From: Moniliella sp. 'wahieum'
Taxonomy: Eukaryota
Assembly: GCA_003971905.1 (NCBI GenBank)
Contig: RSEE01000001.1
Span: 1,674,001 to 1,738,000 of the forward strand
Length of the DNA: 64,000 nt
Direction of reading: 5' to 3'
The notes beneath the pieces were generated by a model. That model was not told where the DNA came from and made no database searches. It saw only the letters and a list, made by a program, of their open reading frames with translations. The translations under genes were made by a program, and so were the position numbers. Each line of letters starts with the position of its first letter. The stretch's first letter is position 1. Below, piece after piece: positions 13,301 through 62,402 of this stretch.

Positions 13301-14502
13301 CCGCATGTTTCAGTCTGGTACTGTTTGAGTTCGTCCCATCCCAAAGAGTGTGGGCGGTGCGATTCACTTGCATTGTACCCGGGGAAAGGTCCATCGAAGT
13401 TCAAATTGGTAGTTCCTCTTCTAATTGCGTAGCCCGTCGAATCGTTCTTGAGGGTTATGGCAGGGGGGCAGACGCATATGCCCCAGCCAACTCAACGATC
13501 AAGGTGCGACAGAGCCACCTATACGGTCTTGCGGGTGCAGTGGTTGTTCAGGCACTGTGGGGTGGGGGGGGGGGGGGGGTTAGACGTGTGCTTTGCCGTG
13601 ACGCCACACTGATGTAGTGGCGCCGGTAGCCCAAGCCCAGAATCTTTGCGTTCATTCCTTGCAATATATTCCCTTCCTGGCGGGCATGAATATTCTTTAG
13701 CTCATGTGCAATGCAATACGCCGTCAACATCCTGCTCTCTCGTCTGCTACAGTTTTTGCTGCCCGGACGATCCTTCCCCAGGTATTCCTACTCTACAGCG
13801 CACCCGCCCAGGAAAACCGTGGGTGCTGGGTCGGATTGAGAGGAGGGGGATTGCGAGACGAAGCAAGAGATGGGTAGGGGCCAAGGATACGCACGGTCCT
13901 ACGCCCGACAGTGCCCTGCCTCCGCCGCCAGTTGTTTGTTGGTGGAGCAGGGTGGCTGGCAGCAAAAAAACCGAGCTGAACTTTGGCAAGCGGCCTGGTA
14001 AGAAGCTGCGCAAGACGCGCGCAGTGGCAAGCGGCTTGCGGTGGGTGGCACACAGGCGCTGCGCTTGCTGGGGTGGTGTGTGCAGTGCGGTGCAGTGCGG
14101 TGCAAGGCGGTGCAGTGCCACGCCGTTCTGTGTGCTGTGCTGCGGTGCGCAGCATGCAAGGAGTGTGGCAATTTGGGTTGCTCGGGTGAGAGCGAGTACG
14201 CACGGCGCCGCTCGCCTCCGCACGCACGCACCAGCGTGCTGTGGCGCCGGCTGCGACGAGGCGGCGTGCAAGGGTGTATTGGGGCATACGGCCAGTGTGG
14301 GGACTCCCGGTGCGACAACGGTGTGGGATACGGCTTCCGCGCTGCGGTGGACCGCAGCGGGCGCGGGGCAGTGTTGCGAGCGGTCGGGCTTGGCGAGCAC
14401 CTGCTGTCACCTGCTCGCCCTCCCCCCCCCGTCTGGCCCCCCGTCTGCCCCCCCGCCAGCCGAACAACGGCCGCCACCACCACCTCCCCCCCCCCCCCGC
14501 CC

Positions 14503-16586
14503 ATGCCACCTTACCTGCCCCCCGACCGCTCCGCGCGTCGGGCCAGGCGTACGGCCCCGTCCCCACCACCGACACCTGGGCCGCCTCTTCTACCACTTCC
14601 CACCCTCCGCCTCTGCCTCTGCCTCTGCCTCCGCCTCCGCCACCTTCCCCCTGGCAATGCCGCGTCCTCTCCCCCCGTCCGCTGCCATGTGGGACACCCG
14701 TCCCGAGCCCGACGACTTTCTGCACAACCCCGACCCCAAGGGAGAGCGCGGATTTGGCGGGGTGGACATCAAGGGTCTCATCAATGTGCTTACCGTCGCT
14801 ACCATCCTCGGTGGTCTGCTGATGCTTTTGCTGGCTACCCGTTGTTGGACCACTTTCTTCAGCACAACAAGAACCTTCTCCAGCTCAATGCCTCAGGTCA
14901 GATCGCTGCGCTACCCAACATGCGCCAGTTGATTGACCCCGACACGCCTGCCAATGCGCACAGCTGGACCTCCATGATGGACGGCACCAAGTACAGCCTT
15001 GTGTTTTCCGACGAGTTTGAGCGCGATGGGCGCACGTTTTGGCCAGGCGACGACCCGTTCTGGGAAGCGGTGGATATTTACTATGGCGCCACCAACGACT
15101 TTGAGTGGTACGCGCCCGAGGCGGTCAATACCACGGGGGCGGGCAATGCAGATCACCATGTCCCAAAAGGATACCCACAACCTCAACTTTCAGTCGGGCA
15201 TGGTGCAGAGCTGGAACAAACTTTGTTTCCAGGGCGGCTACCTCGAGATGGCCGTCAAACTTCCTGGCACCCAGGAAACCCGTGGCTTCTGGCCCGGCCT
15301 CTGGACCATGGGCAACCTCGGTCGGCCTGGCTACCTGGGCAGTACCGATGGAATGTGGCCGTACGTTTTCTTTTTCATCTTTTTCTTTTTCTTTTCCTTT
15401 CGCGTACCCTCCTATACTCCGTGATGGTGACGAACGCCCCCAACTAACCTAATCTAACCTACTCTACCCTTCTCCTGTCACTGCAGATACTCGTACGCGG
15501 CGTGTGACTGGGGCACACTGCCCAACCAAACCAATCCCGATAAATCAGGCGCAAAGCGTTGCATGCCAACGGTCCCTACTCGTATCAATACAGAACCGCC
15601 TTTCCTACCTCCCTGGCCAACGCACCTCGGCCTGCACGTGCGAGGGGAGGACCATCCCGGTCCTCACGTTGGCGTCAGTCGCTCTGCGCCCGAGATTGAT
15701 ATTGTCGAAGCACAAAATTCTCAAAAAGTGGGCCAGGCGAGCCAGAGTCTGCAGGTACGTTTTTGGTTGCCGTTGATCATTGCTTTTCTCCTTTTTTTCT
15801 TCTCTGGTGCAGGTGGGAGCTGACCAACGCACCGCCGCGTTCGCATTGTAGGTCGCGCCGTACGACACGGACTACTGGTGGCACAACAAGAGTGCTCAGT
15901 TTTGGCAAGGTACGCATGTCAACTCGTATACGGGCTCGGTGTATCAGGAGGCTGTGTCGGGGGTGGCTGCGATCCCCGAAACAGCCTATGTCGATGCGGA
16001 CGGGTCGACGTTCACCACGTTTGGGATTGAGGTGGTGCCGGATTACGAGGAAAATGGAAGTGGGTCCATCACGTGGTACCTCAATGGGCAACGGACATGG
16101 CATGCGCCTTCGGCCGTCGTTCCGGCCGATCCCGTCGTTAACATTTCCCAGCGCATCATCCCCGTGGAACCCATGTCGATCGTGATGAATTTGGGTACGT
16201 TTTTGTGTCTGTGTCCGTGATTGTGTGCGATTGGTTGTGTCGCCTGTGCGCTCTGCCTGTGATCGATGATTCCTAACCCAGCTCTGGTTCGTTTTTGCCT
16301 GTGCTTGTGCTTGTACTTGTGGTTATGCTGGTGGTTTGGTAGGCATCTCGTCCGGCTTCCAGACGGTGTACTGGGACGAGATTACGTTCCCGGCCCGGAT
16401 GCTGATTGACTATGCGCGGCTGTACCAAAAGGCCGGCGAGACGCCCAAACTGAGCTGCGACCCTCCGGACCACCCGACGGCCAAGTACATCAACGATCAC
16501 CTCGACCTGTACATGAACCCCAACCACTCGGTCTTCCCGCGCGACCAATTCCCGTGGCCCAAGAACCGCTCGTCGATACGTGCTGA
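14503..16586 (+). CDS. KRE6: Beta-1,6-glucan synthesis-associated protein, KRE6/SKN1 family (GH16); three introns; start uncertain (14503 or 14657)
   Basis: EPDDFLHNPD, a TM segment + FAGYP, LVFSDEF..DGRTFWPGDDPFWEAVD, SGMVQSWNKLCFQGG, GFWPGLWTMGNLGRPGY, RSAPEIDIVEA, PVEPMSIVMNLG, CDPPDHPT..YI. Confidence 0.93.
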
Positions 16587-20337: not shown

Positions 20338-22378
20338 TTACAAGAACGCTTCAATGTCCAACTCGAACGCCGAGCAAGGGTAGTCGATCGAGAACTTCTG
20401 CAGCACCTCCGGGTGCAGCACACCAATGTGGCCCACAACCCGATCCCGGTTCGACGCTTTGGGGTTGGTCGCCTTGGGCTTCCGACGGAGAGCAACGGCA
20501 GCCGAAGTGCGGTTGACAAACTCGTCCGTTCCACCGGTGATCTCCTTGGCATTGTCCGCCTGCCCAGGCAGGGCGGCAGCCAATTTGGTTCCCAACGTCT
20601 CGAGGCCGACGAGCCACTTACCGCCTTGCCCGCTTCGGACTGGGAGGCGGGACGGTAGACAATCGAAGCGCACTGAACGGGCCAGAAAGTAGGCTCGTCC
20701 GATTGCTCGAGGTACCAGCCCTGGTCGGCCTCGGTATCTTGCGAGTGGATCCGGGGCACCTCGAGCTTGCGCAGCAGTTGGTCCAATGCACCGTGCACAA
20801 TCTCAAAGTTGGCAGCCCGGTTCGAGTAGAGCACGGCAGCGTGCCGCTGGTTTTTCGATCCCACATCCGCAGCGTCCGGAAGGAAGAGGGGGGAAGAAGG
20901 GTCAGCCTCGGCAGCGGTGGTCTTGGTAACGATGTCCTGCACCTCAAACAGACGCAGAGGCAGGGCATGTTTCCTGTTCTCCCGCACCGTCTTGAGCAAG
21001 CCCGGCAAGAGCGAAGTCCGCACCACGCCAAACTCGGCCGTCTTGGGGTTCTCCAGCTTGACAGCCGAACCATCGTCCTTCTTTCGGAGCGCAGTAAAGT
21101 TTTCCTCTTCCGAACAGAGAATAAGCGACAAGACTTCGATCCATCCGGCCAGCGCGAGCTCGGTACGGACCACATCGCCCAACTTGTTGATCGGCAACGG
21201 CTTGCCCACCCCACCAACGTCAGGGAAGCGGCGCTTCAAGTTATCGAACCCATACGCTACCGCTGCATCTTCCAGCAAGTCGCACGCCGCCAGCACATCC
21301 GGCCGCGTGCAAGGAATGTCGACCTCAACTTCTCCATCAGGCCCGAGCTGGGTACCTTGTGGCACACGCGTTTGGTGCCCCATCTTAACCAGCAGTGCAG
21401 CCACCTCGTCGGGCGTGAGTTGAAGGCCAGTACCCGAATTGACATACGACGTTTTGACACTCGTCTTGCGGGAAGAGAGGTCCGGCGTGAGGTGGGTCTT
21501 ACCATCGGGGTAAACGATCTTGACAGGCTCGATCGCAAACGGCTCGGCACAGTATTCGGAGAACATGGTGACGAGGATGTTCATCGCAAACGTCAATCGC
21601 GTCTCGTCAATTGCAGTAATCTCGATAAAGACGTCGGTTGTGTTGAGCGTGATCTTGGAATGCTCCGAGTTGATGATGGGGGGCAAAGAGCAAACCGTGC
21701 CCTTGGAGTCGAGCACGACGGGGTAGACGGGCTTGTCACGGATAATGGGGAGGTACGGTTTGAGGTGACTGTCGTGCTCGTACAGAGCCATCAGCTCGTT
21801 CCCATCTACCGCCTTGGTCTGGTTCAGCGGCACAAATTTGATGTCCTTGGGGGGCTTGGCGTCGTAGGTGAACGGACCGGTGATGGTGTTGAGGTCATGG
21901 GTGCCCATGGAAACAAGAGTACGGCGGCGGGCCAAGTCTGGTGCAACTTATCCTGCAGATCAATGAAGCTGGCGTAGTTGTCGGGCGTGAACTTGATGCC
22001 ACGCAGGACAGCACCTTGGATGTAGGGCCGCACCTTGGACGGGTTGGGCGTAACGTGGATCTCCAGAGGCTTACCGTCCGCCGTCTTGGGGTAGCAAGGC
22101 GGTACTGGGGGGCTCGGCGCGGCCAAGATAGACGTTGAGAGCTCGAGAGATCCCCTCGTGGCACAACATGTCGTACCGGTTGGCCGGGATGTCGATCTTG
22201 AGCTCGGGGCGGGTGCCAGGGGGCAGCTGGTGGCCGTCCTTGGCCGCCTCGAGCTCCGTATCTTCATCGAGCTCAATACCGAACTGGAAGCAGAGCTCGT
22301 CGAACTCCTGGGACGTGTAGCCGGGGGAGCACCGATGGCCTGGAAGAAGCGCTGCTTGTCGACAGTCACAGTCGGCAT
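20338..22378 (-). CDS. FRS1: Cytoplasmic phenylalanyl-tRNA synthetase beta subunit
   Basis: [79 protein letters not shown]. Confidence 0.95.
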
Positions 22379-22757
22379 CGTGGAGGGAGATGGCGGTGGG
22401 GCAGACGGAGACAACAGGCGCTGCTCAGACGTTGACTCAGAGAAGGCAAACGGAAATGCACCTGCGACGGCAGCACTAATTCCGCCCGACCTTCCGCCAC
22501 GCCGCCTGGCGCAGCAGAGGCAGTGTCACATGTCATGTGACCTGGTAGCTGGCACTCTGCGCGCCGTATACTGGTCACGTGTCACGCCCCCGCCAGGCAT
22601 CAAGTCATCCCAGCCGATGGAGAAGTAATCCATGCGGTGCGGCGTTTCCTGCAGCTGCTTTTCCTGCGCGCCGAACGAGATAGTCCAACACGGACTGTTC
22701 ATGACAACCAGTCTTAGGGTCTACGCCAGAATACACTCGAAGGCATCGCACCTAATT

Positions 22758-27836: not shown

Positions 27837-28090
27837 GTTGATGGTCTGGAGGAAAGGTGTGGTGGCAAACCCGAGCGGGCCTTAGCAAGGGCCGAGGCGG
27901 CCGCCGTACCCGCTAGGGTTATGACGTTAGCCACTCAATTTTGCGCCGGCTGCGGCACCAACCCTAACTAGTTTTGCTTGGGCTGCTGCGGCTTCGCCCC
28001 CGTTTTTCTCCCGCAGAACTTTGCGCTCGGACAGTTTACCGCCATCACCACCCCTCCCTCTCACTTTTGCCCGTCTTCGCCGTACCCGTC
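27837..28090. promoter_or_regulatory. Bidirectional ribosomal-protein promoter with inverted telobox-like sites
   Basis: About 255 bp between the divergent starts. TAGGGTT at 27914-27920 and AACCCTA at 27960-27966. Confidence 0.55.
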
Positions 28091-28651
28091 ATGATTATCC
28101 CCAAGGACAACCGCAAGAAGATCTACTCGGAGCTGATCCAGGAGGGTGTCCTGGTCGCCCCCAAGGACTTTGAGACGACCCACCCGTACCTCGAGCTGCC
28201 CAACCTGCAAGTGGTCAAGGCGGCCCAATCGCTCACTTCGCGTGGCTACCTCAAGACTCAGTTCAGCTGGCAGTGGTACTACTACACCCTCACTCCGGAG
28301 GGTCTGGACTACCTCCGCGAATACCTCCACTTGCCCGCGGAGATTGTGCCGGCGACGCACAAGCGCCCGGCGCGCCCGGCCCGTGCTGCTGGTCCCCCGG
28401 CTGGTGCGCCCGGTGCCTACCGTCCCCTCGTCCTTCGGGCGCTGGAGAGTACCGTCGCAAGGACGCTGCTCCCTCGGGTGACTACCGCCCCCGCTTCTCG
28501 GGCAACCGTGCTTAAAAAGTTGGCACATGAAGAGGCCATGCGGTCGTTTCGTTGATTGCACGCTCGGATCCCCGTTTGGATTTCCTGTTTTCGTCCTTGC
28601 TGATGCTGCTTTTGTTGCTTCCCCCTCTTAGCTCGAGCGTCGGGTGGCTAG
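28091..28651 (+). CDS. RPS10: 40S ribosomal protein S10 (eS10); probable 3' intron about 28508-28631
   Basis: [12 protein letters not shown]...EGVLVA.KDF...[52 protein letters not shown]. Confidence 0.95.
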
Positions 28652-29332: not shown

Positions 29333-30779
29333 ATGCCTGGTCTCCGTTCCGGAGCCGATACTGCTTTTCCACCCCTTTCCAAGAAGAAGCGTAACCCGCG
29401 CGCCGAAAGCATGTCTGCCGACGCCATTCTCCCTGTCGAAGCTACCCATGAGGAGCCCGCAGTTTCCATTCCTCGTGTCGAGGCTACCCAAGAGGAGCCT
29501 GCAGTTCCCCACGCCACCCCGCCGCCCCCGAGCGTCTGGACGGTGAAGACGCCCAAATTGCCCACGATGGCACCCCCCCCTCTGTCGAAGGAAATCACTC
29601 CCCGAAAACCAACCTAACCCACCATGAGCTCATGTTCCTGTTGCATCTTCAAGATTTACACCCCGAGTGGTCTACGGAACAGGCACAAGATGCGATTCAC
29701 GACCTCGCATTCATGCACGAATTTGCTTACTTTGCCCGCAAGTACCGCATTCAAGGTACCGCGGCGCTGATTCCCAATTGGTTTCCCCCAGTTCGAACAT
29801 CTGCCCACAGCCCCAGCAGTGTTGACACTTTCCCACCTCTGGAAATCCCTTCTCATCAGACACGTTCTGTGGAGGAGGAGATGATTAGGGCGCTGGCTAA
29901 AGGAAACAGCTTACCCTCCTGGGAACTCGGAACGACGCACTGGCTTGATTATGACTATGATACGCGCAACCAGCTCTCGGCATACCAGTTCCTGAACCTA
30001 GTCGTCAACGGCCCCTCTTCCCCTGAGGAAGAGCTGATCGACAGGCGGCTCGAGCATGTCCTTTTGACCAAATGTGACTCGACCACGCAGAGTCATGTTG
30101 CCTGCGGTTCGGCCTCAGGCCTGTACCGCAAGATGTGCGAGCGCAATCGTCCCACCCAGGTCAAACTTGAGAGTGATGTCAGTTCCCGCCTGGACACACT
30201 TAAGCCTGCGGCGCATGAGACGGCGCGGAAGTTCCTTGCCCGCATCGAGCGGATCGTGGGTATGGGTGAAATGATTGGACTCCCGCTCAGCGTTCGTGCC
30301 TGGAGCGTTCTTGCCAATAGCTGCCCTGAGCCGAATCGCGTGAAGGAGCAACAGCTCCAGGGCAAGACCCGGAGCCAAGCGCTGCAGTTCTTGAACATCG
30401 AGGACACAGTGCTCGTCACCAAGGCTGTTTCCTCGCACAAGGGCAAAGGAGGGCGCGCAGAGCGCAATGGTACCTGCCGTCTTCACCCCAATGGCAGACA
30501 CGCAGAGGCCCAATGCTGGTCACTGCATCCGGAGTTGAAGAACATGCCGATGTCGAGCAGCTCGAATAACTCCAATACTTCCCATTCGGCCACAGCAGTT
30601 AGTCGCTACGCCAGGCAGGAGGAACCCCTCCGCCACCGATGTACTCGCCCGGCTATATGCCGACGTACTACCCCTCACCTCTGGTTTTACCAGCTCCGGC
30701 ATTCCCACAGCCAACTAGCCCTACCGCGAACGCGCAAGGCCTAGCCCCCGTTTCTTTCCCGCCTCCTGATCGCCAGTAG
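29333..30779 (+). CDS. gag: Copia Gag (two apparent indels), with a CHHC-type zinc knuckle
   Basis: ORFs 29333-29617, 29632-30744 and an open frame 30603-30779. Knuckle CRLHPNGRHAEAQC (C-X2-H-X4-H-X4-C) followed by WSLHPEL. Confidence 0.75.
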
Positions 30780-33700
30780 GAACTCGCGGCAGCCCTGTCA
30801 CAGGGGTTGCCACCACCCACCACTGCGTCTGCGCTCCACAAGCTGGTAGTTGACAGCGGCGCGACGCCGAGCATGGTCCGCTCGCCCGAGGGTTTCATTT
30901 TCCTCGAGCCTGCGACTGGGTGGGTTGAGTTGGCTGGCGCGTCCAGGAAGCTTGCGGTGACAGGCTGTGGGGTGAAGCGGGTTCGACTCCCGGCTTCCAC
31001 AGTCCAAACTGAATGCATCCTTGACTTGTACTGCTTGCTTGTCCCCCAGTTAGACCATGACTTACTCTCTGTACCGCAGGCAAATGCCGCTGGTCATCGA
31101 GTAGAGTTCCTTGCACACCGCCAAGGCGCTGTTATCCATAGCGATCCCGCAATTGTTGCTCGCTACGACCGTATCGCTAATGGCTATGTGGTTGATTACC
31201 ACTGCGACGTCCCCAACGTCCCCATTCAAGCCCACGCCCGTGCCGCCGTGGCCGACTATACCCGGATACTGGCTGCTCATGCCCGCCATGGTCATGTTGG
31301 TTGGCGCCAGCTTCCCCGCCTCACGGCCACGGGGCCAGTTGCGCAACGCATCACTTCCACCCAGGCCCATGCAGCCGAGGCCGACGCGGCCTGCGTTTGT
31401 CAGGCGTGCGCGGCGGGGCGGGGCACCCGACGCCCGTTCCCTGAGAGCCACACGGCACGTGCAGCTGCCCCACTGGCGCACTTGCATGCCGATCTAGTGA
31501 CAGATTGGCCGACGGGGCTGAAGGGTGAGCGCAATTTACTTGTCGTAGTCGACGACTGCACCGGCTATCTCTGGGCCATTCCGCTGGTGCGCAAGAGCGA
31601 CGCTGCAATGGCACTAGCCAACTTAATTCTCCTCGAGGAGCGCCGCCTCCTCGCCCGCCACGGCGCCAGTCTTTTCCGTCTCCACACCGATGGCGGTACT
31701 GAGTTTTCCCGTGTCCCGCACCTCCTCACTGCTGCCGGTCATGCACCGATCCAGCACACCACCACCACCCCCTACACCTCCCAGCAGAATGGCCACGCCG
31801 AGCGCGCCGCTCGCACTATACAGGAGCGTACCCGCGTCCTCCTCGCCGGCGCCCGCGCACCGTCTCAGTACTGGGCCGACGCCGCTGTCGCGGCAGCTTT
31901 GTATGCCAACGTTAGTGTGTCGGCCGCATTGGGCGCCCCCTCACCATTTGAACGCTATCACGACCGCCCCCTCCCACGCAGCTCTTATTTTGGGGCACCC
32001 TGGGGTGCGGCCGGCTGGTGTACTTTGTTAGGTCCCGAGCGCGGCCACCGCGCCGCCGCGCGCCCGCCCTGGCATGCTAGTCGGATTCGATCCGCTCGGC
32101 TCCAAGGGATACGAATTTGAGTTTATCACAGAAGACGGCCACAGCTCGTACAGGGCGTGGTGCACCGACGTCATGTGGGATCCCACAAACCCCGGGCTGG
32201 CGATACGCCAGGCCCAATCGTTGCCGGGTACGCCACCGGATGGGCTTCGCGACCGTCCGGATACACCTGGTGGGGCTGAAGTTTCCACATCTGGTGGGGC
32301 TGAAGTTTCCACACCTGGTGGGGCTGAAGTTTCCACGCCTGGTGGGGCTGAAGCTGCCCCCCGTCGCAATCCGGCTCGGGCGCGTCCCCCCTGATTTCTA
32401 TCAACCCAAGGATGCGCATGCGCCTCCCTTGACGGATGAGCCGCCAGCCGAGCTTGATCCCGATTGGAGCCCAACGGGCCATGCGCGCACCGCGCGTCAT
32501 CCCCCTTTGTCCCACCCAATCCCCCCTACTATTACTGTTTCTTCCCCTGATCCTGCCACCGCATCCCTTACACCAAGCCCGAAAAAGAAAGCCATTCCCC
32601 GCCGGCAACGCCGTTTCGCATCCCTCCCCCGACTGTCGGCACCACTGCTGACGGTGTGCCCCTTGCCCCTCGGACCGAGCGTGAAGCAATGGCCACCTCT
32701 GAGTGGCCCCAGTGGCGCCAGGCCGAACACATTGAGCTTGACGGGCTCAGATCCATGGATGCCTTTGAAGAAGTGCCACGCCCTCCGGCCGGAACGAAGA
32801 TCTTGGGTGCCCGCACCGTCTACAGTGTTGGCGTCACCCCAGAGAATATGTTCCTCAAACGGAAAGCCCGTATTGTGGTTCAAGGAAACCAGGAGGATAC
32901 AAGTGAGTTGCCCAAGGCCCTCACATTCTCGAGTGGCGCAGCACATCAGTCTTTTCGCACCGTAGCCGTGGGAGGTAAAGCGCAAGGCCTCCAGGCATAT
33001 TATTTTGACTGCAAGAGTGCATATCTCCATGCACCCATTCCCTATGAGGTATACGTTAAGCCTCCCGATCGTTTTCTCACCGACAAAGCAAACGTTTGGC
33101 GACTCAAGAAGTCCCTCTATGGCCTTGCAGCCTCCGGCGCTGCGTGGCACCGCCACCTCGCCAGCAAGCTACGAGATATTGGTTTCCGCTCGACGGTAAC
33201 AGAACAGGACGTATGGATACGCAAACGAGCGAATACGACCATCATGCTCGCAATATACTGTGATGACGGAATGGCCATGGCCCCGTCCCAAGCTGCTTTT
33301 GACGCATTCATGGACGAACTCGGTCTCAACATCAAGATTGGCGACAAGGGTCCTCTCAGTAAGATGCTGGGTGTGCACTATGTTACTCGCCCTGATGGTT
33401 TTGACTGCGACCAGCGTGCATTTCTGTTAGCTTTACTCGCCCGCACCGACATGCTCGAGTGCAACCCTGTTCGTTTGCCTATCAATCCTGATACACCTCT
33501 CCCGCCACGTCCACCAGACGAAGCTCCTGCCACTGTCGCCGAGCATAAGCGCTATATGTCGATTGTGCAGAGCCTCAGCTGGGCCGCGCAGACCTGCCGG
33601 CCCGACCTGTCATTTGTCGTACATCTTCTCAGTCGTTGGAACAAGGATCCCTCTGCTGCACACCGCAGCGCCGCACAACATGTCCTGCGCTACCTCCGTG

Positions 33701-34281
33701 GTACATTGGATTGGTCTCTGCGTCTCAGGATCAATCGAACGGCACCTCCTATTGCCGTATTTACCGATAGCGATTGGGGCGGCGACAAGGTCACACGCAA
33801 GTCGGTAACAGGGGTCGCTGTGTTTGTTTTTGGCGCCCTAGTGCACTGGCGCAGCGCCCAGCAGACCACTACGGCAATGTCGACCGCTGAAGCTGAGATG
33901 ATGGCTATTAGAGAGGGCGCCCGCGACGCTCTCCGCATTCGTAACCTCATGGTCGAGCTTCAACTAGTACCTTCCAACTGTCCGGTGGATCTCTATAGCG
34001 ACTCGGCTGTTGCCCTGTCAATTATCTCTCGCCCTGGTTTCATTGGACGCCTTCGTCATATGGACATTCGCAACCATTGGTTCCGCGAGCATGTCGATTC
34101 GGGGCGCATTTTGTGGCACAAGGTTCTTGGAACCGAGAACCCCGCGAATGATTTTACCAAGCTCCTACCGTATACGGTTCAACGCTCCAGTGTAGGTCGC
34201 TACCTCACGCTCACGCCGGATCCTGGTGGGGCTGAGGAGACTTCCCGCATCAAGCCCATTTTCGGCTCAGATTCCTCCTAG
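30780..34281 (+). CDS. pol: Copia Pol: protease, integrase, reverse transcriptase, RNase H (indels about 32050 and 32390-32650)
   Basis: VVDSGAT (PR); HARHGH..CQAC, LHADL, VVVDD, TDGGTEF, QNGHAER (IN); KRKARIVVQG, LKKSLYGL, YCDD (RT); FTDSDWGGD, STAEAE, RHMDIRNHW.RE, NPANDFTK (RH). Confidence 0.95.
32263..32352 (+). repeat. 24-bp tandem repeat (about 3.7 copies) in the IN-RT linker; each unit contains a PPT-identical motif
   Basis: Unit ACACCTGGTGGGGCTGAAGTTTCC, translating as (TPGGAEVS)n. Confidence 0.92.
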
Positions 34282-44100: not shown

Positions 44101-45395
44101 CAAAGTGCGACACAAGCCCTTGGCTTGTTGGATGACGTGCCTACGGAGCCGATGGTAGGCCACCACGCCATCGACCCAGTCCTGCCCAAACGCCGGGGGA
44201 GGGACGTACATCTCATCGACCAAGGTGGCGTAGAGACGCTTGCTCATCCCGACGGGTACTAGGACCGCATGACCCTGGTCCAGATCCGCACGGGTCATGC
44301 CCTGTGGCAGTGGACGCGGCGTGGGCTGCCGCCCGACCTGGGGCTGGATCAGCTCGCAAACGCACGTGTCCAGCACGGGCGGGAGGTAGAGCGAGGTACC
44401 GTACCAAAGCGGGTCATGCGGTGGGCATGGCGTTGCTCGTGCCGGTCGCGGGCGAGAAAGACGTGGGCGGCAGTGGAGACGGTTTGCGGGTCAAACTGTA
44501 GCACCTTGGCCACCAAGGGCGAGACGAGGGCGAGGGTAACGTGCTGCGTCGACCGAGCAACGTGCAGCGCAGGTGGCAAGGGAAGCGATAACTGTGCATC
44601 CGCTGGGGTGGGGGGCAGCACGCGCGAAAACGCACTGGCCTCAACATCGGTTGGCGCACGGCTGTACTGCCGCCAAGCGGGACAGCGTACCATCGCACTA
44701 CCCACATCGGCGCGCAGAGGGGGAGGGTCCTGCTCCGCCTCGGCGCGGCGCGAGCCAGAGAGCGAGGGGGCGGTCTGGGGCGCAGACGGGTTGGAGGCCA
44801 AGTAGTCCAGCACGGTGCACACGGACGCATTGGGAGGCGGCTCGTCGTCCCAGTCGACATTGGGGGTGGCGGCGAGGCAGGCGGGGTCGACGCCGGCGGC
44901 AGCGGCCACGGCATAGACAAGCGTGGGGGAAACAAGGTGCAGATGGCTGTCGGCGATCCACACACGGCCGGGGGCCGAGTCGGGGGTGGCCCAGTGGAGC
45001 TCGGGATGGGCCTCGAGCGCATCCGCGGCATCGACCAGGAGAAACTCGCCGGCCTTGTCGTGGATCTGGGCGGCGGGGGAGAGGATGGTGGCGGCGGGGG
45101 TGGCGGTGAGGGTGTGGACGAGGAAGGCGAGCACATACTCGTCCTCGATTGCGCCGTCGGTGCGGGTGGCGATGCGCAGCTGGCCGGGGGCGTGGGGACG
45201 CAGGGGCTGGCGGGCGCGGACATGGGGCACCTGGCGCGTCCAGACGTAGGGCTGGGCGGGGCCGCGGGCGGGGTGGCGGCCGGCGAGGTTGAGGGCCCAG
45301 TGCTGGAGCGCCTCGAGCTGGGCAGCAAGCGCACGCAGCGCGTCGCCCTGGGCGGCGACGAAGATGCGTGCGCGCACGCCGTCGATGCGGTCCAT
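41119..45395 (-). CDS. SGT1/ecdysoneless (ECD) family protein; intron about 41817-42039; indels
   Basis: PYVW, IEDEYVLAFL, DKAGEFLLVDAADAL..WATP...GRVWI...LHLV, DLGTKLTVGMEM, EIDAFLRFA.EQLGL.EQQY..IVEERRARG|AYVP. Confidence 0.85.
41928..42027. repeat. Compound (GGAAT)/(GGGAC)/(GGGAT) intronic microsatellite
   Basis: Pentamer array inside the SGT1 intron. Confidence 0.9.
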
Positions 45396-46993
45396 GGGGG
45401 GCGGTGGTGGTGGTGGCGGCGGCGGCGGAGGAGATGGGATACGATGGGATGGGACGGATGGGCTGCGTTCAGGCTGGGCGGCGTGCAGGCAAGGGACGCT
45501 GGCAGGGCGATCTGAAATTAGGGATCGAATGCTGCAAGGAGGGCGAGGGCAGAGTGCCGGCCAGTGCCGGCCAGTGCGGGCCAGTGAGGGCACAGTGCAT
45601 GGACGCGACAGGAGAGCGTACGGCCGACACGCGCCGTCGGCTGCCCCCGTGCCGCTGCCCGCTCCCGCCGCCGCCGTGCCGTCCGGCCGCGCACAGCGCT
45701 CCCGGGCCGGGGCAGCGCGCACGGCGGGGGTGTGTGCCCCTATGCGCGCCGGGCACTGGCCGCGTGCGGGGCGCCCGCGCCGTGGCGAGCGCACGCGACA
45801 CTGCTCCCGCGCCCACAGAGCCCGCGGCCGGGCGAAAGACGCAGCGGCGGGAGGGCAGTGTTGGGTGCGGGGAACGGTGAGCGGGGGAGCGGTGAGATCT
45901 CAGACGCAGCTGGGCGTGGCGGAATGCGGCGGTAAGCTGGAAGAGGATCGGATTCCGATCCAGATCCAGACGGCATGCTGGCTCAGCGCTTACTCACGCT
46001 CCCTCAGACTCAGATCCCAGTCCCAGCCGGCCCAGCGCGCCTTCCCATTTGAAATGGCTACTTTCAGCAGTCAGCGCTCGCAATCGAATCGTGCGCAGGG
46101 CGTCAGCGCTGAGGCTCAGCGCTCGCCAGCGCACAATCCGAACCTGAGCCGCGACAGAACGTTCTCTGGCTCGGCTTGGCGCTCAACATTTCATTGCGCT
46201 GCGTGGCAGCCAGGGTGCAGGGTGCACGCACTAGTGACTAGTGACGTCAACATTCCGCATTCAACTTTCAGCTTTGTATGCCAAGCCATTGACTTACCGC
46301 TAACCACTTACCAAGTACCGCTTATCAGCCTCAACCGCAAAACGTCCATCCCAACCCACAGGCCAACGTCGCTCGCCCATCGCACCCGCCTCTCAGCATC
46401 CCACATCTAATCTCAGCGCTGCCAGCCCAGCCTCACCTCACCCCCTTTTCCTGCGCACCCAACACCCCCTCTCCACTCCCCCAACTCCTATTATGCGTTT
46501 CGCATTGTTTTCTCTCGATCCATGTGCCAGTGCCATCGGCCCTCTCCTTTTCTTTTCCCCCTTTCCGCACCAACTCTCGATATCTACGCGCAAAAGGGGG
46601 ATCCGTCCCACGCCCTTGCTTCCTCCTTTTCGCACATCTCCAATCGGCACATCGTATCTTCCCACAGGTCTCCTCTTAGATCGTACTAGACCGTACCGCC
46701 GTCCGTTGTCTCCCATCGTACTCAGCTCGCTGTGTTGCTGAAAGTCGAACCAGACCTCAGCCTGAGGGGCATACGCGCTCAGCCTGAACAAATACTTACC
46801 TACCCTGGCACCCTCATCAAGTTCTACCGCCCAAAGTGCCCCGCTTCATCTCTAAGTTCCATATCGGAGGGTGCAAAGAAAATGTGCAACCCTACTGCAC
46901 CCCCCCACCTGCACGTGACGGCTGGGGGGCTGGCTGCGCCAATCATCGGGCATATGACAGAGTCGCGTCGACGCGTCCCTCCACCCACTTAAA

Positions 46994-49644: not shown

Positions 49645-50550
49645 ATGGCCACCACTCCGCCGCCTACGTCCCCCCCAAGGTATGGAAGTGGGACCACACC
49701 CCCGCACCTTACTCTAACATCAATCGTCCCATTGCCGGGCCGACATTCGAAGCCGAGCTCCCTCGTGGCTCGACCAAACTGCAGTTGTACAACATGGGCA
49801 CTTCACCCAACGGGCAGAAAGTGCCTATCCTGCTGGAAGAGTTGATTGACGCGGGCAAGCTTGACAATTACGATGCGTGGTACCTCAACGTGCGCGAGGG
49901 GGTCCAGTTCAGCACAGGCTTTGTCGCGGCCAATCCCAACTCGAAGATCCCCATATTGGTGGACTATGAGTCAAGGGCGAAGGCGAGGGCGAGGGCGAGG
50001 GCGAGGGGTTGCGCGTGTTTGAGTCGTGTTCCATCTTGCTCTACTTGGCAGACAAGTATAACGGGTTTATCCCGACGGACGTGCGTGGGCGCACCGAGAC
50101 GCTCAACTGGCTGTTTTGGCAAGCGAGCACAGGCCCCATCTTTGGCAACTTTGGTCACTTTTATGATTTCTGCACTACCAAACACGAGTATGCTATCAAT
50201 CGCTTTTCCATGGAGGCTAAGCGGTTGCTCGACGTGCTCGATCGCCGCTTGGCACATGTTCCCTATGTCGCTGGGACCGAGTACACCATTGCCGACATGG
50301 CTATCTGGCCTTGGTTTGGCGCGATGGTCCTGGGCAAACTGTATGGCGATTCGGCGGTCTTTTTGGCCGTGAACGAGTACCCGCACGTACAAGAATGGGC
50401 TAAGCGGATCGCAGCCCGCCCAGCGGTCCAACGCGGCTACATGGTTAACCGAGATGTAGGTCCGTTGGAGGGACAGCTGCGCGAACGGCACGACCCTTCG
50501 GACTTTGCGACGAAAACCCAGGATAAGGTGCAAGCGGCCAACGCAGCGTA
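49645..50550 (+). CDS. yghU: YghU-like Nu-class GST / glutathione-dependent disulfide oxidoreductase, copy 1 (intronless)
   Basis: YVPPKVWKW..SNINRPIAGPT...[98 protein letters not shown]. Colinear with E. coli YghU as I recall it. Confidence 0.9.
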
Positions 50551-51118
50551 ACGTCACAGACTTCATATCGAGACAAGAAGTCAGTCCCAGCCTGTTTGAT
50601 GCTCGTATAGCGCCAATTCATGTGTGGATCTCTGTTTCGTGTTTCGTTCTTGCACCCCACAGGCTCGGAATCCGGCGTGCATAGCATCATCTCTGCCCGT
50701 GTCTCTTTTTAGTCGCTTGCCAAGTGGTGGATGGCCGTACGGATGAGGAGGGTGGCACGGTGTCCCTGAGAGTCGCGCCTCATGCCATCGTACTGGTTGG
50801 TCTCTGTGGCATACGAGTGACTGCGGAACAAGGAACCCAGCCCCAACAGACCGAGAACCTCCCCGCAGTTGGCCAGGTGGACCGGTGGGAACGGCCAAAC
50901 CTGCCCGCCTCCCGCTCCAAATAATATGGCTCACGGGGGTATCGGCTCAGCGACCCGCAGATAATCCGCCTTAGCTCCGCTGGGGAGACACTACCATTAA
51001 CCCCGCCATTGACCAGCCCTCTTTGGCTTGGCCTTGTGCCTGCCACCACCACCTTGGCTGCGTGACTACCATCCCCCGCCCGCGCATCGCCGCCGCCCTC
51101 ATCCTCGCCGAGTGGACC

Positions 51119-52027
51119 ATAACCTCTCCCTACGTTCCTCCCCAAGTATGGAAGCAGCCTCCTGTCGACGCGCCCTTTTCCAACATCAACCGCCCAACGG
51201 CCGGAGCAACGTTTGATGCGCCGCTTCCACGGGGCGCGATGCCGTTGCAGCTGTACAACCTTGGCATCTCGCCCAACGGGCAGAAAGTGACCATCCTACT
51301 GGAAGAGTTGATCGAGGTGGGCAAGTTGGACAATTACGATGCGTGGCTGATCAAGGTGCTGGAAGGCGAGCAGTTTAGCACGGCTTCGTCGCGGCCAACC
51401 CGAATGCGAAGATCCCTGTGCTGCTGGACTATAGCGCGGCGGGAAAGATGGCCCGGTAAGCGTGTTCGAGTCGGGATCTATCTTGCTCTACCTGGCAGAC
51501 AAGTACGGTGCCTTCCTTCCCACCGACGTCCGTGGCCGGACCGAAACGCTCAACTGGCTGTTTTGGCAAATGGGCTGTGCGCCCAGTCTGGGCAACCATG
51601 GTCACTTTTACTCGTTTTGCACGACCAATACGAGTACCCGATCAACCGCTTTGCCTTGGAGACCAAGCGTCTGTTCGATGTGCTCGACCAGCGCTTGGGG
51701 GATGCACCCTACGTGGCTGGAACCGAGTACACGATTGCCGACATGGCCATTTGGCCCTGGTTTGGTAACTTGATCCTAGGTCAGCTTTTATTCCGATACC
51801 GACCGCTTCTTACAGTTGGACAATACACCCATGTGTTGGAGTGGGCACGACGGATCCAAGCCCGCCCAGCTGTTCAACGCGGTCGGATCGTCAATTTCAC
51901 CTCCGGACCGCTCGATCACAGTTGCATGAGCGTCACGATCCCAATGACTTTGCCACCAACACAGGACAAGATCCTAGCCGCATCTTCCAAGAAAGATGAT
52001 GAAACCGCCCCTTCCATCGACCAGTAG
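51119..52027 (+). CDS. yghU: YghU-like Nu-class GST, copy 2 (intronless; start reads ATA; indels)
   Basis: [96 protein letters not shown]. Confidence 0.85.
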
Positions 52028-52774: not shown

Positions 52775-55028
52775 TTACACAGGCAAAGTGTCCCGTAACG
52801 CATCCAGTTCCAGCAACTCGTGTACGCCAGGCGGGAGACTATCCGACTCGCGCGCGGCCGCTTCCATGACAGCGAGAAAGGCCGGGTCGCGCGCAAAGCG
52901 CGGGACCGAGTCGGCGGCCATCAACTGGAAAATGTGGTCTTGGATTTTCGAGTAGAGGTGCAGCAGTTTGTAACTGCGATGCATGTACCAGTCGTGCCGA
53001 CGAGCCCATTCGCGCCAACACAAGTTTCTTTCGTTCTTCGAGCGAGAGCACCGGCACTTTTTTCCCCATTCGCGTCCCTTCTTCCCCTGACAAACTTAGT
53101 TCCAGCGACGTCATGCTTGCCCCCTCGGTGGCCCCGGCAAGTGGAAGCGGACTCTCGTCCACTAAATCGCGCGCTGAGCGCTCGAGCACTTGCGGTGCCG
53201 TTTTTTGCATGTAGGTCAACAGTTCGGTGCGGAGCGAATGCTCAAGGTTGAGTTCGGCCGGCGCTCCGGGCGCAAGGTAGGTGTTGAAGATGAGAAAGGC
53301 AATGACGATCAAGTCGAGGTGGTGCCGTTCCATAGCCGTCATCGTCGGCTCGTCCACTCGCTCGCTTCGGTCGGGCTCGTGAGGTTCAGAAGGGGTTGAG
53401 GGGGCAGATTTTTGCCCCAGCTAGAAGGGACGAATCGCGGGGTACGGGATGAGGTAGGTTTGTCCGCTTGTCGTTCGGCGTCGAGGGACGTACGGCAGAA
53501 GCAGAAGAGGTGGTGGAGAAGCGACGCTTAAAGTCCTGCACATCCAGATAAAACGATAAGTTTTCTTCGCAAAAGTTACGGCGCAAGTGGTCTTGAACAG
53601 TTGGCACAGAACGGGGTCGGCCAGGATCTGGCGCAATCGGTTACGTGTGCCTTGGTCGCGTGGTAGGGAGACAGTGGTGGGACCAGAACTTGCCCCGGAC
53701 GCTTGGGCTCGTTCGGTAAAGCTGCCGGGCCGGGATCCGGATCCGAGACGAGAAGACATGTCGGATAAGTGTCCGCGGCTGCCGAGGGAATGGGTTGAAC
53801 CCGTATCTTCGTCGGCGGAAGAGCGGGGCTCGTCGGGCGAAGCGGCATTCAGCATGGTTCGTTTGATGGTAGGCAGAGGACCAGCGTGCGAGGTAGCTTG
53901 AGGGGAAGGGCGGCGGTAATGACCTTCCCAGCGAGCCACTTCGCGGCCCCGGTCCGTTAGCGCATAAACCGACTTGTAATGACACCGAAACTCGCCCTCG
54001 GTGATCATGCCACCCACATCGGCACCACGTACCGTGACTTTGTCCGATTCGGTTCGGGCATCCGACCGCGCTCGCGCTGGCCGCGGCTTGTCGACAGCCA
54101 ACTTGATCAGGTCCACCGTTCAAAGTGAGCCAACATCTGCCGCCTCGTCACGGCCACAGACAGTGGTAAAGTCCATGAGCCACTCGGTTGCGCCAATCGC
54201 ATTAAACGCGTGTCGGACCACTCGTACATCTCCGCCCCTCAGCCGTTCTACCACATCCGACATCTCGACTCCCGCGACCGATCAAAGCCCGGATCGGAGG
54301 GAACGTAGTGTTTGACCCATCGAAGCAAAGTGTTCGGGGGAAAACTGAGGGGTGCCATACTGCGCTTCTCGGCAAGGGTAATTGGCTTGTTCCAGCAAAG
54401 CGGCGAAAGAGATAGTCGAGAAGTGGGAGACGGACGTTGATCTCGTCATCGGAAGCACGACGGTCGAGGAAGATAAGGCGGATGGGTGGACGATGGGCCT
54501 TCATGGCTGCCTCGAGGTGATCGGCTGAAATGCCATTGACCGAGAACAAACCGTTCGAGGAGACAGTAGCCCTTGAGAGTGAGGCACCAGATGCCCTTCA
54601 CGGAAACTGTGCATCGAAGGGTCGGCTGCATTGGCAATGAATCGTGCATCAAGAAAGTGTTGGCAGATGCTCTTTGCAATCTCCCGATTCATGGTGAAGG
54701 TGGTAGTGGTAGTGGTGGTGATGACTCGACTGGGCTCGTTGGGATCGGGCTGGCGCGAGGACTGGGGCAAACTTGAGTGCACTCAAGTTGGCCACCGCCT
54801 CGTCGGTGGTGAAGAGTAAGGGTAGATCTTGAAGAGGTCCGATGGGTGATGAGCTGTAGGGAGACGACGAGTGTGGTAAAGAGGTCCTGCAGGTCCTGTG
54901 CAGAGCAAAGGGAATCATCAACACACACAACGGGGGGCGGGGGAGGGTAAACCAACCTTGGAAAATGGGCGGTTGCGTGCGCCCGTCTTCATCACCCGGC
55001 TGGACACGTTGGGTGGGGGGGCGGACAT
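52775..55028 (-). CDS. flbA: Regulator of G-protein signalling with DEP and RGS domains (FlbA/Sst2/Rgs1 family); intron about 54897-54956
   Basis: MKT...RPFSK|DLQDLFTTLVVSL, TTTTTTTFTMNREIAKSICQHFLDARFI, NFCEENLSFYLDV, YLAPGAPAELNLEH, QDHIFQLMAADSVPRF. Confidence 0.88.
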
Positions 55029-58087: not shown

Positions 58088-60142
58088 AGAGAGAGTATAG
58101 CAATCGCATCAGGACTCATGGCTCAGGTGCTAGGAGGCGGCCAGGGCTGTCCTTAGACTGGATATGTGGGCAGAGGGTTATAGAGACGGGACAGAGGAAG
58201 GTATGGGGGGGGGGGTTACATTCGGGTGCGATGCGAACTCTCCGTAACATACGGCCATTTTGGGACGGTATACCAAAAGAATTGCCCTTTTTGCATGCAC
58301 GTATCCTCGGGGAGGGAAGAATAATAAGTGTGAAATGCATCTGGCAGTCGCTAGATAGTATCCGGTCGACATCCAAAGGTGGGCGTATGCAGCCTACTAA
58401 GCCGCCCACGAACACAAAAAAGGGGGGGGCATCTTCTGCAGGTTGCGACCTTTCAACCGTCGGGGGGCGACGTTGCGTGTGGCCAATTGAAGGAACCATC
58501 TTAATGGACCAACTTTACAAACATGATCTTCTTCGCCAACCATGAAGAGGGGAATTTCCGTGTGGTGCCATGCCGACGACCCCGCGTAAGACCGGTACCG
58601 CTCTTGGATTGCTTCCGAGCTGTCGCTTGCAATGAGCCAAGGAAAGGCGACGGGGAGATAGAGGCTCCTTCCGGCTACCCATCATCTTCAGCCTGCTTCT
58701 ATCTCTTCGTGGGGCGCCGACCCGTACATGAAGAGAAAATGGGCGATCCGCTCGTGGTGGAATGAGAGGGCAATAAGGATTCAGATGTCTAGATGCCACC
58801 GTCCTGGGCTATGGTTTTATAGGAGCATGGCTTATCGGAACGCTGTTCGTCCGGGCAGCAACCAAAAAGGCACTGTCGACATCGGACATCTCTCAGTCTG
58901 CCTGGGTCGGTTGATGACCTGCCCGACCACAAGTGCGAGTGGTACGCCATGTAATACCGCGGCTCATCTTGACACTCATCATTTTGGATCGCATTCCACC
59001 AAAAGGCGCGGTCATTAAGGATCCGACGTACTCCAAGTTCAGTCTTGGCCTACATGGGCAGGCTGTAGATACTTGTACGGACGGGCACGGGCTTCCGGGT
59101 TATTCCGCCCCGGTTCCGTTCCCAGTCCGGCGGGTTCCGTCCTTTCTTCTCTTCAAGCTTCAAGCTTCATCCATCCATTTTCACCTTCTGTCTGCGCTGC
59201 GCCCGCACAATACTTCCAGAATATCGATCACCAGAACAGAACTGGCTCAAGTTATTCGTTATCTATCTCGCTGCAACTAGTAGTTAGAACACGTGTGACT
59301 CCGTCTATCGCGTATCGGGACCGACCGGGAGCGAGCGTCCGCACTGGGGGGAAACGGGAGATGGACGGGCACTTAAAAGATTACCGGCAGGAGCCGATCT
59401 GCATAGTAGGCGTCACCAACAGCATCGCGTGTATAGCGTACTGTGTGTAAGAAGTTGGACTGCGGAGTACTGATACGAAGGGCCGGTAGAGGCGGGTCCT
59501 ACCGCAGGTAGGGTGTTCTACCTCAGGCAGACTCAACGTACTCAGAACTCAGATCAGACCTCAGCTCCTCAGAAGCCATCACTAGTCACTGGTCGCCGTG
59601 GCTGGGCAGCGGGCATGGCATGGGCTGGAATGGATGATGCCGGGTTGCTTGGCTGGGGATGCCGGGGATGGGACATGGATACAGCGGCTGGACGGCTGGA
59701 CCGATGGGATGTTGGAAATGGTCCGAGCGGACATTTACTGGTTGCCTGGTATCATGGGACTGAGGCACGGGGGCAGTGTTTCCAATGGGCCGCCGGCCAC
59801 TCTCCCGTGGGGCGACTAGGAAGATTCGAGATTATTCCAGCCACGATTATCTCCGTTGGGAAGGCCTATGCTTATGACTGTTGTGGCTGGGGGCCAGCCC
59901 TGCGACAGACTGGGGTGACAGGCCGATTTAAAGCCAGCTCCCCCGGGGCCTGCCGCGCGTCTCTTCTCTCCCCCCACCCTCTGCCTCCTTCGACCTCGCC
60001 CTTGTCGTGACGCCGCGCTGCGCTTTTCCGCTTCCGCGTCATCCTTGAGCGACTAGTTGGTTCTTCCCGCCTCCCGCCACCGCCACCCCAGCCCCAGCCC
60101 CAGCCCCAGCCCAAGCCCCCTGATAACTTGCATCATCCCATC

Positions 60143-62109
60143 ATGGTACGTCCCCTCCCTCCACCCCGCACGCCCCACGTGCCCAGCTCAATGCTTACCC
60201 ATCCTTCGACCTGGCCAGTGCGGAATTCTCGGTTCGTGCTTCAACCCCGACTGCCGTTCGGCCCGTGGCCAAATGATTGCCATGTCGCGCCTCCTGCGCC
60301 ACCGTGGCCCCGACTGGAGCGGCGTCAAGGTCATTCCGGAAAAGTCGGGCTCGCAAGGCGACATTTTGTGCCACGAGCGTCTTGCCATTGTTGGCGTTGA
60401 CACGGGTGCCCAGCCGCTCGAGTCGGCTGACGGCAAGGTATTCCTTGCGGTCAACGGAGAGATCTACAACCATCGGCAACTGCGTCGTCACCTGCCCAAC
60501 CCGGATGCTGAGTTTGCCACTCACTCGGACTGCGAGGTGATTTTGCACATGTACCAACAGTCTGGCGGATCGACCGACTTTATCTCCAAGCTCGATGGCA
60601 TGTTTAGCTTTATCCTTGTTGACCGCTCTTATTCGCCTCACCGTGTCATTGCGGCGCGCGACCCGATTGGCATCACCACCCTCTACCAGGGCTGGTCGTG
60701 GAAGACGCCCGGAGCTGTGTACTTTGCTTCGGAGCTCAAGGCGATCCACAAGGAATGCGACCGCTTGCGTTCTTTCCCTCCCGGTCACTTTTGGGACTCG
60801 AGCCGTCCCAAGGGAGAGGAGACGGTGCAGTACTTCAACCCCGAGTGGATCAACGAGGATGGCGACGACTCGCCCGTGCCCACCACCCCTGCTGACCTGA
60901 AACTGATCCGGGAAACGCTGGAGAAGTCGGTCAAGAAGCGCCTCATGTCTGAGGTGCCCTACGGCGTGCTCTTGTCTGGTGGTCTGGACTCGTCGCTGAT
61001 TGCCGCGATTGGCCGCGAGACGGACAAGCTGGCTGAGCGCCAGTGGGAAGATGAAGCGTCAGCGGCACGAGACGAAGAAGCAGCGTCAAGAGGCAGTCGA
61101 GCATCCCAAGAAGTACATGGCTGTCGGTGTCGACGAGGAGACGATCCGGCTGGATCGACGATTGCCGCTTGGCCTCAGCTCCATTCCTTCTCCATTGGTC
61201 TGCCGGGCTCGCCTGACTTGATTGCCGCTCGTCAGGCGGCTGAGTTCCTCGGCACTCGGCACCACGAGTACACCTTCACTGTGCAGGAGGGACTGGATGC
61301 GATCTCGGATGTGATCTACCACCTCGAGACGTATGATGTGACGACGGTGCGTGCCTCGACACCCATGTACCTTCTTCGCGCAAGATCAAGGCCATGGGCG
61401 TCAAGATGGTGCTTTCGGGTGAAGGATCGGACGAGATCTTTGGTGGGTACCTCTACTTCCACGCTGCCCCCGATGCCGCCTCGTTCCACCACGAGACGGT
61501 GCGCCGTGTGAAGAACCTGCACACGGCCGACTGTCTGCGTGCCAACAGTCGACCATGGCGTGGGGCCTGGAGGCACGTGTGCCGTTTTTGGACAAGGAGT
61601 TCCTCCAGGTGGCCATGACGACCCGTCCGGAAGACAAGCAATTCTCCAAGGGCTCCTGCAGCAGAAGGATGCCGACGGCAAGCCCAAGATGGAGAAGTAC
61701 TTGCTGCGCAAGGCATTTGATGTGTCTGCGCTGCCGCCCGAGACGGACGCCAAGACGGGCGAGACGCGGCCTGCGCGGCCCTACTTGCCCGACTCGATTC
61801 TGTGGCGGCAAAAGGAACAGTTCTCCGACGGCGTGGGCTACTCGTGGATTGACGGGATGAAGGAGCATGCGGCCAAGGCCGTGTCGGACGCCAAGTTTGC
61901 CGAGCGCGCCGAGCGCTGGAGCCTGGACACTCCCGACACGAAGGAGGCGTACTGGATCCGCGAGGTGTTCGAGTCGTACTTCCCGTCCCAGGCGGCGGCC
62001 AAGACGGCGGTGCGCTGGTGCCGCGCGGCGACTGGGGCTGTGCCGCCGACCCCTCGGGCCGCGCGGTGCAGATCACGAGCAGGCATACGAGGAGGGCAAG
62101 AAGGCGTAG
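60143..62109 (+). CDS. ASN1: Glutamine-hydrolysing asparagine synthetase; intron 60146-60218 directly after the ATG
   Basis: M|CGI.., [91 protein letters not shown]. Confidence 0.96.
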
Positions 62110-62402
62110 ATCCGCATCTAGTTTTCTCCGATCGCTCGCCCTGTCCGGTCGCAATGTAATGCTGAATGGCGGCACAAGCCAGCCCAACTAGACACATCTG
62201 CTGCTATAGCCACTTCGCTTGAATAATCGAAGTCACCTACAACGCCATAGAGAAGAAGACGCGGCAGAAGGGCGGAATGGGCGGAACGAGGATGGGTTCT
62301 TCTAATGAGGCCTGAGGCCAGTGGCCACCGGCAGCCAGTCTCGCTCCCTTGCCTGCGTCTGTCCCTCTATCCCTCCACCACCGCCCCTGCCACTCGCCCG
62401 CC

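Follow-up and report, generated by a model that had tools for sequence, protein, structure and literature searches.

The window analyzed here, a 64,000-nucleotide stretch of the Moniliella sp. 'wahieum' genome (contig RSEE01000001.1, positions 1,674,001 to 1,738,000), carries two adjacent, same-strand genes for glutathione S-transferases (GSTs) of the YghU type, a gene family that is essentially bacterial. We assign a probability of roughly 0.65 to the explanation that the two copies are old tandem paralogues that descend from a gene transferred from a bacterium, have a remodeled active site, and are interrupted in the assembly by frame breaks that are mostly errors. According to this explanation, an ancestor of the present fungal lineage would have received the gene from a bacterium in a single old transfer; a tandem duplication would have followed, with lasting purifying selection on both copies. 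The positions of the two copies, their frame breaks, and the neighboring genes are collected in Table 1; all coordinates are those of the window.

The family assignment was examined with structure-database and profile searches. The C-terminal 193 amino acids of copy 1 (49970-50548) matched Escherichia coli YghU (PDB 3c8e) with an E value of 7.7e-70 (query residues 13-188, chain residues 112-287), compared with 2e-29 for YfcG, about 6e-14 (PcUre2p6) to 1e-10 for the Phanerochaete Ure2p entries, and 1e-09 for yeast Ure2. The NCBIfam model NF008731, the YghU equivalog described as glutathione-dependent disulfide-bond oxidoreductase (287 profile positions, curated cut-off of 325 bits), was matched by every piece of the copies tested. 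The two pieces of copy 1 scored 124.9 bits (profile positions 6-106) and 257.1 bits (positions 111-286), a simple sum of 382 bits that exceeds the cut-off, although copy 1 does not form a single open frame; the three scanned pieces of copy 2 scored 93.9, 83.2, and 81.9 bits. Scores against the NCBIfam model for YfcG were far under that model's own cut-off, and Pfam returned only generic GST_C domains, in two of the five pieces submitted. These comparisons support the assignment of the encoded proteins to the YghU-type (Nu-class) GSTs rather than to the usual fungal Ure2p type, as the first-pass annotation of this locus had proposed from the sequence alone.

Both copies are colinear with bacterial YghU from residue 5 or 6 of the Sphingobium protein P0004 (289 amino acids [aa]) onward, copy 1 to the end. 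A tblastn search with P0004 covered residues 5-106 and 113-286 in copy 1 and residues 6-265 in copy 2 (up to 265 in one frame), and neither tblastn nor the comparison of frames revealed an intron-sized gap in either copy. Copy 1 amounts to approximately 302 codons once two single-base losses are allowed. The N-terminal motif Y.PP.VW...NINRP.AG and the C-terminal motif ERHD..DF, the two hallmarks reported by the first-pass annotation along with end-to-end colinearity, were recovered in both copies. The extension of copy 1 reads YSNINRPIAG, and the Asn of NINRP, which binds the second glutathione according to the account of the Nu-class enzymes in PMC5892560 and belongs to an extension that YfcG- and Ure2p-type proteins lack, is kept in both copies and in 234/235 homologues. 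Past the GST_C domain, copy 1 ends in RERHDPSDF, aligned to residue 287 of the 288 in the 3c8e chain, and copy 2 ends in HERHDPNDF, in a shifted frame. The copies therefore resemble E. coli YghU (3C8E) and Novosphingobium NaGSTNu (5UUN) in length (∼290-300 aa), NINRP extension, and ERHD..DF tail, and copy 1 is ∼65% identical to E. coli YghU over the C-terminal 176 residues, as estimated from the alignment. They differ from these two enzymes in their tandem arrangement and their location on a eukaryotic chromosome, in the active-site changes described below, and, in copy 1 only, in a (Gly-Glu)n loop insert that is missing from copy 2 and from the bacterial homologues. The insert is encoded by an AGGGCG microsatellite, whose length in this surface loop might differ among strains.

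The fungal Ure2pB and Ure2pA proteins (PcUre2p, yeast Ure2) are, like the copies, members of the broad Nu/Ure2p superfamily, but their matches are far weaker (E values of 1e-22 to 1e-09, versus 8e-70 for YghU), and these proteins, at ∼220-260 aa, align with the core only and lack the YghU-type N- and C-terminal parts. PDB entry 4F0B is presumably PcUre2pB1. The bacterial proteins YfcG and YghU are themselves counted as Ure2pB relatives in the fungal literature, as stated in PMC3815920.

The active site sets the two copies apart from other members of the family. Copy 1, copy 2, and a 296-aa database protein that groups with them (P0397; see below) were aligned to 235 other homologues, and the derived characters of these three sequences were missing from 234 or 235 of them. 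One residue is inserted before the Thr-Pro-Asn motif in all three sequences and in 0/235 others, and the catalytic Thr is replaced by Ser (x-Ser-Pro-Asn; among the others, 234 have Thr and one has Ser). The position of Tyr166 in NaGSTNu and Tyr167 in E. coli YghU, located by counting along the 3c8e alignment, is occupied by Phe (234 Tyr and one Val among the others). The two residues that follow are changed as well (Ala to Cys or His and Pro to Thr or Asp), such that the near-invariant YAP has become FCT or FHD, and GGGF is shortened to G[NQ]F. The analogue of Tyr224/225 and the other glutathione contacts, namely Gln86 (of QF), Lys99 and Ile100 (of SKIP), Glu116 and Ser117 (of FES), and Arg177 (of INRF), are kept in both copies, as they are in YghU and NaGSTNu; in copy 2 the Tyr224/225 analogue lies just 3′ of a frame break.

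By homology, the product would be a homodimer with two glutathiones per active site that reduces disulfides or strips glutathione from conjugates. Mutagenesis of NaGSTNu, as reported by Kontur et al. (2018, PMC5892560), reduced kcat ∼1,000-fold for T51A and 400- to 1,000-fold for Y166F. Ser retains a hydroxyl and may preserve catalysis at the Thr position. Because the catalytic Tyr is replaced by Phe, lyase chemistry is probably weakened; as far as residue identities can indicate, the enzyme probably still binds glutathione, with weakened or altered glutathione lyase activity and a shifted substrate range. A more far-reaching and tentative proposal, which we consider somewhat less probable than its converse, is that a subfamily of bacterial-derived YghU enzymes in the fungal lineage, arranged in tandem, long under purifying selection, and with a rebuilt active site, represents a neofunctionalized Nu-class GST whose chemistry or substrates would be unlike those of any characterized YghU or YfcG. 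A clade that replaced two residues found critical by Novosphingobium mutagenesis offers a natural experiment on what Nu-class disulfide reduction requires as opposed to glutathione lyase activity.

To place the copies among their relatives, protein databases were queried with the C- and N-terminal parts of copy 1, and the best 120 of ∼8,000 matches were considered for each query (7,999 matches for the C-terminal part). The best C-terminal matches are 61-67% identical, and all 28 with an organism name (28/28) are bacterial, mostly from Alphaproteobacteria; among the best N-terminal matches, 13/13 with an organism name are bacterial. No named fungal YghU-type protein was found among these 240 best matches. 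With the N-terminal query, P0397, which has two cluster mates, clearly leads with 143 bits (68% identity), against 130 bits for the runner-up, and it matches NF008731 at 372.2 bits over profile positions 5-284, above the 325-bit cut-off. Since P0397 is intact and has the derived characters of the copies, the YghU-type gene is not private to this genome and its acquisition predates it; such genes may also form a wider clade in fungi. The best 80 of 533 related metagenome loci are 57-65% identical, and none of them is a close relative or lies in a fungal context; the clusters obtained from the ESM Atlas were exclusively generic GST_C ones, nearly all of them bacterial. In a library of representative sequences, the best match was 55% identical; this library was also the source of YghU-like proteins from eukaryotes, namely the diatom Entomoneis (P0249), the red alga Erythrolobus (P0275), and an MMETSP transcript (P0280).

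Maximum-likelihood trees were computed from 72 rows (LG+C20 PMSF [posterior mean site frequency] model, quick search) and from 49 rows (LG+G4, careful search, bootstrap not fully settled). Copy 1, copy 2, and P0397 form a clade with a Shimodaira-Hasegawa-like approximate likelihood ratio (SH-aLRT) support of 100 and a stem of 0.38 in the first tree and support of 100/100 and a stem of 0.40 in the second. The order within the clade is weakly supported, copy 2 joining P0397 at only 82/42. Both trees place the clade where sequences from Alpha-, Beta-, and Gammaproteobacteria, myxobacteria, and Binatia radiate with poor resolution, and in both the diatom and red-alga sequences lie apart from it, in an algal group with other sequences (83/96). 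A phylogeny had been suggested along with the first-pass annotation as a check on its proposal of a bacterium-to-fungus transfer; the copies do fall within bacterial YghU diversity on a long, fully supported stem. Judged on similarity and tree position, transfer from a bacterium to a fungus is the most likely history and the best supported one, short of proof.

The relationship between the copies is that of diverged paralogues. They are 72% identical in DNA sequence, and over 282 codon pairs (197 identical residues) the ratio of nonsynonymous to synonymous divergence (dN/dS) is 0.13 with a dS of ∼1.6. Differences are richest at third codon positions (62/271, 44/274, and 123/270 at the first, second, and third positions, or 23%, 16%, and 46%), and in the protein trees copy 2 has no lengthened terminal branch (0.24, against 0.29-0.31 for copy 1). 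The low dN/dS and the high dS argue for an old duplication under constraint. Local alignment of the flanks of both copies detected no common sequence, either upstream or downstream, and no similarity was found between the spacer and the sequence upstream of copy 1. The tandem duplication is real and diverged, in agreement with the first-pass annotation, which had described two adjacent same-strand genes that were duplicated and then diverged.

Neither copy is an uninterrupted open reading frame (ORF) in the assembly. The genes had been described as intronless, which holds as far as intron-sized gaps are concerned but not as regards intact open frames, with two breaks in copy 1 and seven in copy 2; the earlier reading had passed straight across them in both genes. 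The ATG of copy 1 misses the YghU frame by one base, and the second break of this copy, at which the tblastn high-scoring segment pairs stop at 49967 and resume at 50003/50012 in a different frame, sits just 5′ of the AGGGCG microsatellite. In copy 2, no in-frame stops were found beyond those due to the shifts. No ATG occurs in any frame between 50926 and 51148, the start region of copy 2. At four codons 5′ of YVPPQVW, the in-frame sequence of copy 2 is ACCATAACC, and its counterpart in copy 1 is ACCATGGCC; the correspondence between the ATG of copy 1 and an ATA of copy 2 rests on this short resemblance, which local alignment did not extend.

We leveraged essential host genes in the same window as a background for these breaks. 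The breaks in PheRS-beta were located by aligning its closest relative, P0121, back onto the window, which revealed five single-base breaks in ∼2.0 kb, four of them inside ∼390 nucleotides (nt). Every one looks like the loss of one base in a short homopolymer (e.g., CCCCCC read as CCCCC). The asparagine synthase gene has three breaks inside ∼400 nt, across which the Pfam profile and the DNA coordinates are contiguous. An apparent in-frame stop at 61509-61511 splits this gene into two ORFs (484 and 215 aa); it was considered as a real nonsense codon and rejected, as it is explained by frame switches at ∼61380, at ∼61535, and before 61773. Because the essential neighbors carry the same kind of homopolymer breaks, most of the breaks in the copies are probably assembly errors of this type, i.e., homopolymer sequencing errors. 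The two breaks of copy 1 match the host-gene background, and the organism itself probably carries an intact copy 1. More generally, the assembly looks unpolished, even essential genes containing homopolymer indels, which makes it unsafe to interpret this genome from its ORFs: its frame breaks cannot be read as pseudogenes, and apparently intact ORFs should not be assumed.

Several observations weigh against the proposed history of the two copies, some concerning their origin and others their integrity. As to origin, the YghU backbone is a polytomy, such that the nesting of the copies within bacteria relies on a star-like tree that singles out no donor. Orthologues from fungi with ≤60% identity could lie below the best 120 of the ∼8,000 matches. 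When the eukaryotic sequences were forced into one clade, a group defined after the tree had been seen, the log-likelihood was 60.6 worse, and the approximately unbiased (AU) test gave a P value of 0.062, which does not reject a single clade with the algal YghU-like proteins. Composition is uninformative: G+C content at third codon positions (GC3) was considered as a sign of foreign origin and discarded, since the values of the copies (0.70-0.75) equal those of host genes yet fall within the span of values seen in bacterial homologues (median, 0.69), all three overlapping.

The poorly resolved backbone and the AU result, together with the existence of YghU-like proteins in Entomoneis, Erythrolobus, and the MMETSP transcript, leave some room for an old eukaryotic YghU-like lineage, of which the copies would be part as kin of the diatom, red-alga, and protist proteins, either by vertical descent with massive loss or by transfer between eukaryotes. 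These algal and protist proteins do resemble the copies in being eukaryote-encoded YghU-type GSTs, but they are 360-607 aa long with N-terminal extensions, are only 50-57% identical to copy 1, compared with 61-67% for proteobacterial proteins, and occupy a separate group in the trees computed freely, from which the constrained tree departs by the likelihood deficit given above. Neither list of best matches contains a named fungal protein of the YghU type. We therefore regard common eukaryotic descent as improbable and retain transfer from a bacterium as the preferred origin.

As to integrity, copy 2 has seven breaks in 0.9 kb, versus roughly 1.5-2.5 per kb in host genes. Its frames follow the order 2>1>0>2>0>2>1>2, with five −1 shifts and two +1 shifts, and the codon at the expected start position, 51119, is ATA. 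Real frameshifts may be present in the copies, and one or both could be pseudogenes, relics of the transferred gene that lost their function recently. The number and kind of the breaks in copy 2, its start region (ATA where copy 1 has ACCATGG, and no ATG nearby), and a break density above the gene-wide average of PheRS-beta (five in 2.0 kb) all fit such a loss, as do the two breaks in copy 1. The break density of copy 2, however, does not exceed the local maxima of essential genes, in which equally dense clusters occur (four in ∼390 nt of PheRS-beta and three in ∼400 nt of the asparagine synthase gene). All examined glutathione-contact residues are kept in copy 2, its stops are made only by the shifts, and the homology of its ATA with the ATG of copy 1 is inferred from a short resemblance. 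Long-standing decay of copy 2 is disfavored because dN/dS is 0.13, differences are in excess at third positions, and the copy 2 branch is not lengthened. On balance, recent loss of function in one or both copies appears unlikely, though less so than the eukaryotic descent discussed above; copy 2 taken by itself has slightly better odds of being intact than of being a young pseudogene. Two constrained paralogues whose breaks are mostly errors remain the preferred interpretation.

The copies are flanked on both sides by fungal genes on one contig (Table 1). The window further contains SAPS, KRE6, and a Ty1/copia element, in addition to the SGT1 and RGS genes, and the host belongs to Ustilaginomycotina, a smut-related subphylum of the basidiomycetes: for its PheRS-beta, identity is 61% with the Tilletiaria protein and 55-56% with those of Ceraceosorus and Tilletia, and two records are closer, at 85-86%. 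The surroundings had been described as spliced fungal genes, and canonical introns were indeed found in KRE6/SKN1 (∼15755-15850 and 16195-16342 on the plus strand), which are short and AT-richer than the exons, with a GTACGT donor, a CTGAC-like branch site, and an AG acceptor. This setting bears on the possibility that the copies entered the assembly through bacterial contamination or a chimeric join, as a draft-quality, error-rich assembly might allow. The SGT1 gene (44.3-45.9 kb) and the RGS/DEP gene (52.8-54.3 kb) enclose them on the same contig, and a Pfam scan of 61 neighboring ORFs (including those at 46-49.5 kb and 56-59.4 kb) found no other bacterial-type domain. The copies are, moreover, 72% identical to each other in DNA sequence with common derived characters missing from 235 homologues, and no bacterial or metagenomic sequence exceeds 67% identity among the best matches listed. 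An artifact of this kind is thus very improbable, and the copies are best regarded as residents of the fungal chromosome.

YghU-type transfer has already been cataloged for Moniliella, and the present pair adds one more case. A catalog of prokaryote-derived genes in 829 fungal genomes (mBio 2024, PMC11708051) holds at least two Moniliella sp. 'wahieum' entries in rows 9929-9930 of its supplement file 3, for both of which the best match, with 53% identity, is an alphaproteobacterial protein named 'glutathione-dependent disulfide-bond oxidoreductase' and each of which is scored as a transfer. These genes share the product name and the Ustilaginomycotina yeast host with the copies described here, a correspondence by description with a catalog entry only; their gene numbers are far apart, which indicates that they are not a tandem pair. 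The same catalog reports glutathione metabolism as enriched among the transferred genes of yeasts (PMC11708051). No dedicated study of fungal YghU-type genes was found in the open-access literature searched. Bacterial genes are common in fungi, and genes of glutathione metabolism are reported to be enriched among those of basidiomycete yeasts; the significance of the present locus lies in a clear YghU-type enzyme, not of the fungal Ure2p type, that a eukaryote has retained in two copies under constraint.

Table 1. Coordinates of the two YghU-type gene copies, their frame breaks, and other features of the window
Feature	Position	Strand	Remarks
YghU-type GST gene, copy 1	49645..50551	+	ATG at 49645 in ACCATGG context; TAA stop at 50549-50551
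Copy 1, frame break 1	49648..49664	+	17 nt between the ATG and the TAC of YVPPKVW (49665), one base short of six codons; CCGCCGCC stretch
Copy 1, frame break 2	49965..49970	+	Frame 0 to frame 2; TGA at 49967 in frame 0
Hexanucleotide microsatellite, AGGGCG × 5.7	49974..50007	+	Encodes the (Gly-Glu)n loop insert, copy 1 only
Spacer separating the copies	50552..51118		Without a Pfam-bearing ORF
YghU-type GST gene, copy 2	51119..52027 (start ∼51119)	+	YVPPQVW from 51131; TAG stop at 52025-52027
Copy 2, seven frame breaks	Near 51380, 51440, 51627, 51788, 51822, 51917, 51958-51962	+
SGT1-domain gene, upstream neighbor	44352..45899	-	Fungal; PF07093, E = 9e-17
RGS/DEP-domain (flbA-like) gene, downstream neighbor	52778..54281	-	Several frames; RGS fragments in three ORFs plus a single DEP fragment, each with a weak match (E = 4e-4 to 3e-3)
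KRE6	About 15138	+	At least one frame change, no intron-sized gap
PheRS-beta	20341-22381	-	Essential host gene; five frame changes, no intron-sized gap
Asparagine synthase	60057-62156	+	Three frame changes, no intron-sized gap

Further features were noted elsewhere in the window. The sole match in the Pfam scan of the 61 neighboring ORFs was ribosomal protein S10 (plectin/S10 domain; 27968-28552, plus strand; E = 4e-39). The Ty1/copia-type retroelement occupies ∼29450-34280 on the plus strand in several frames, with Pol beta-barrel and integrase core domains at 30780-32117 and an RVT_2 reverse transcriptase at 32551-34278. Upstream of KRE6, a stretch of lower G+C content extends from 10001 to 14000 (0.49-0.52, versus 0.56-0.66 elsewhere).

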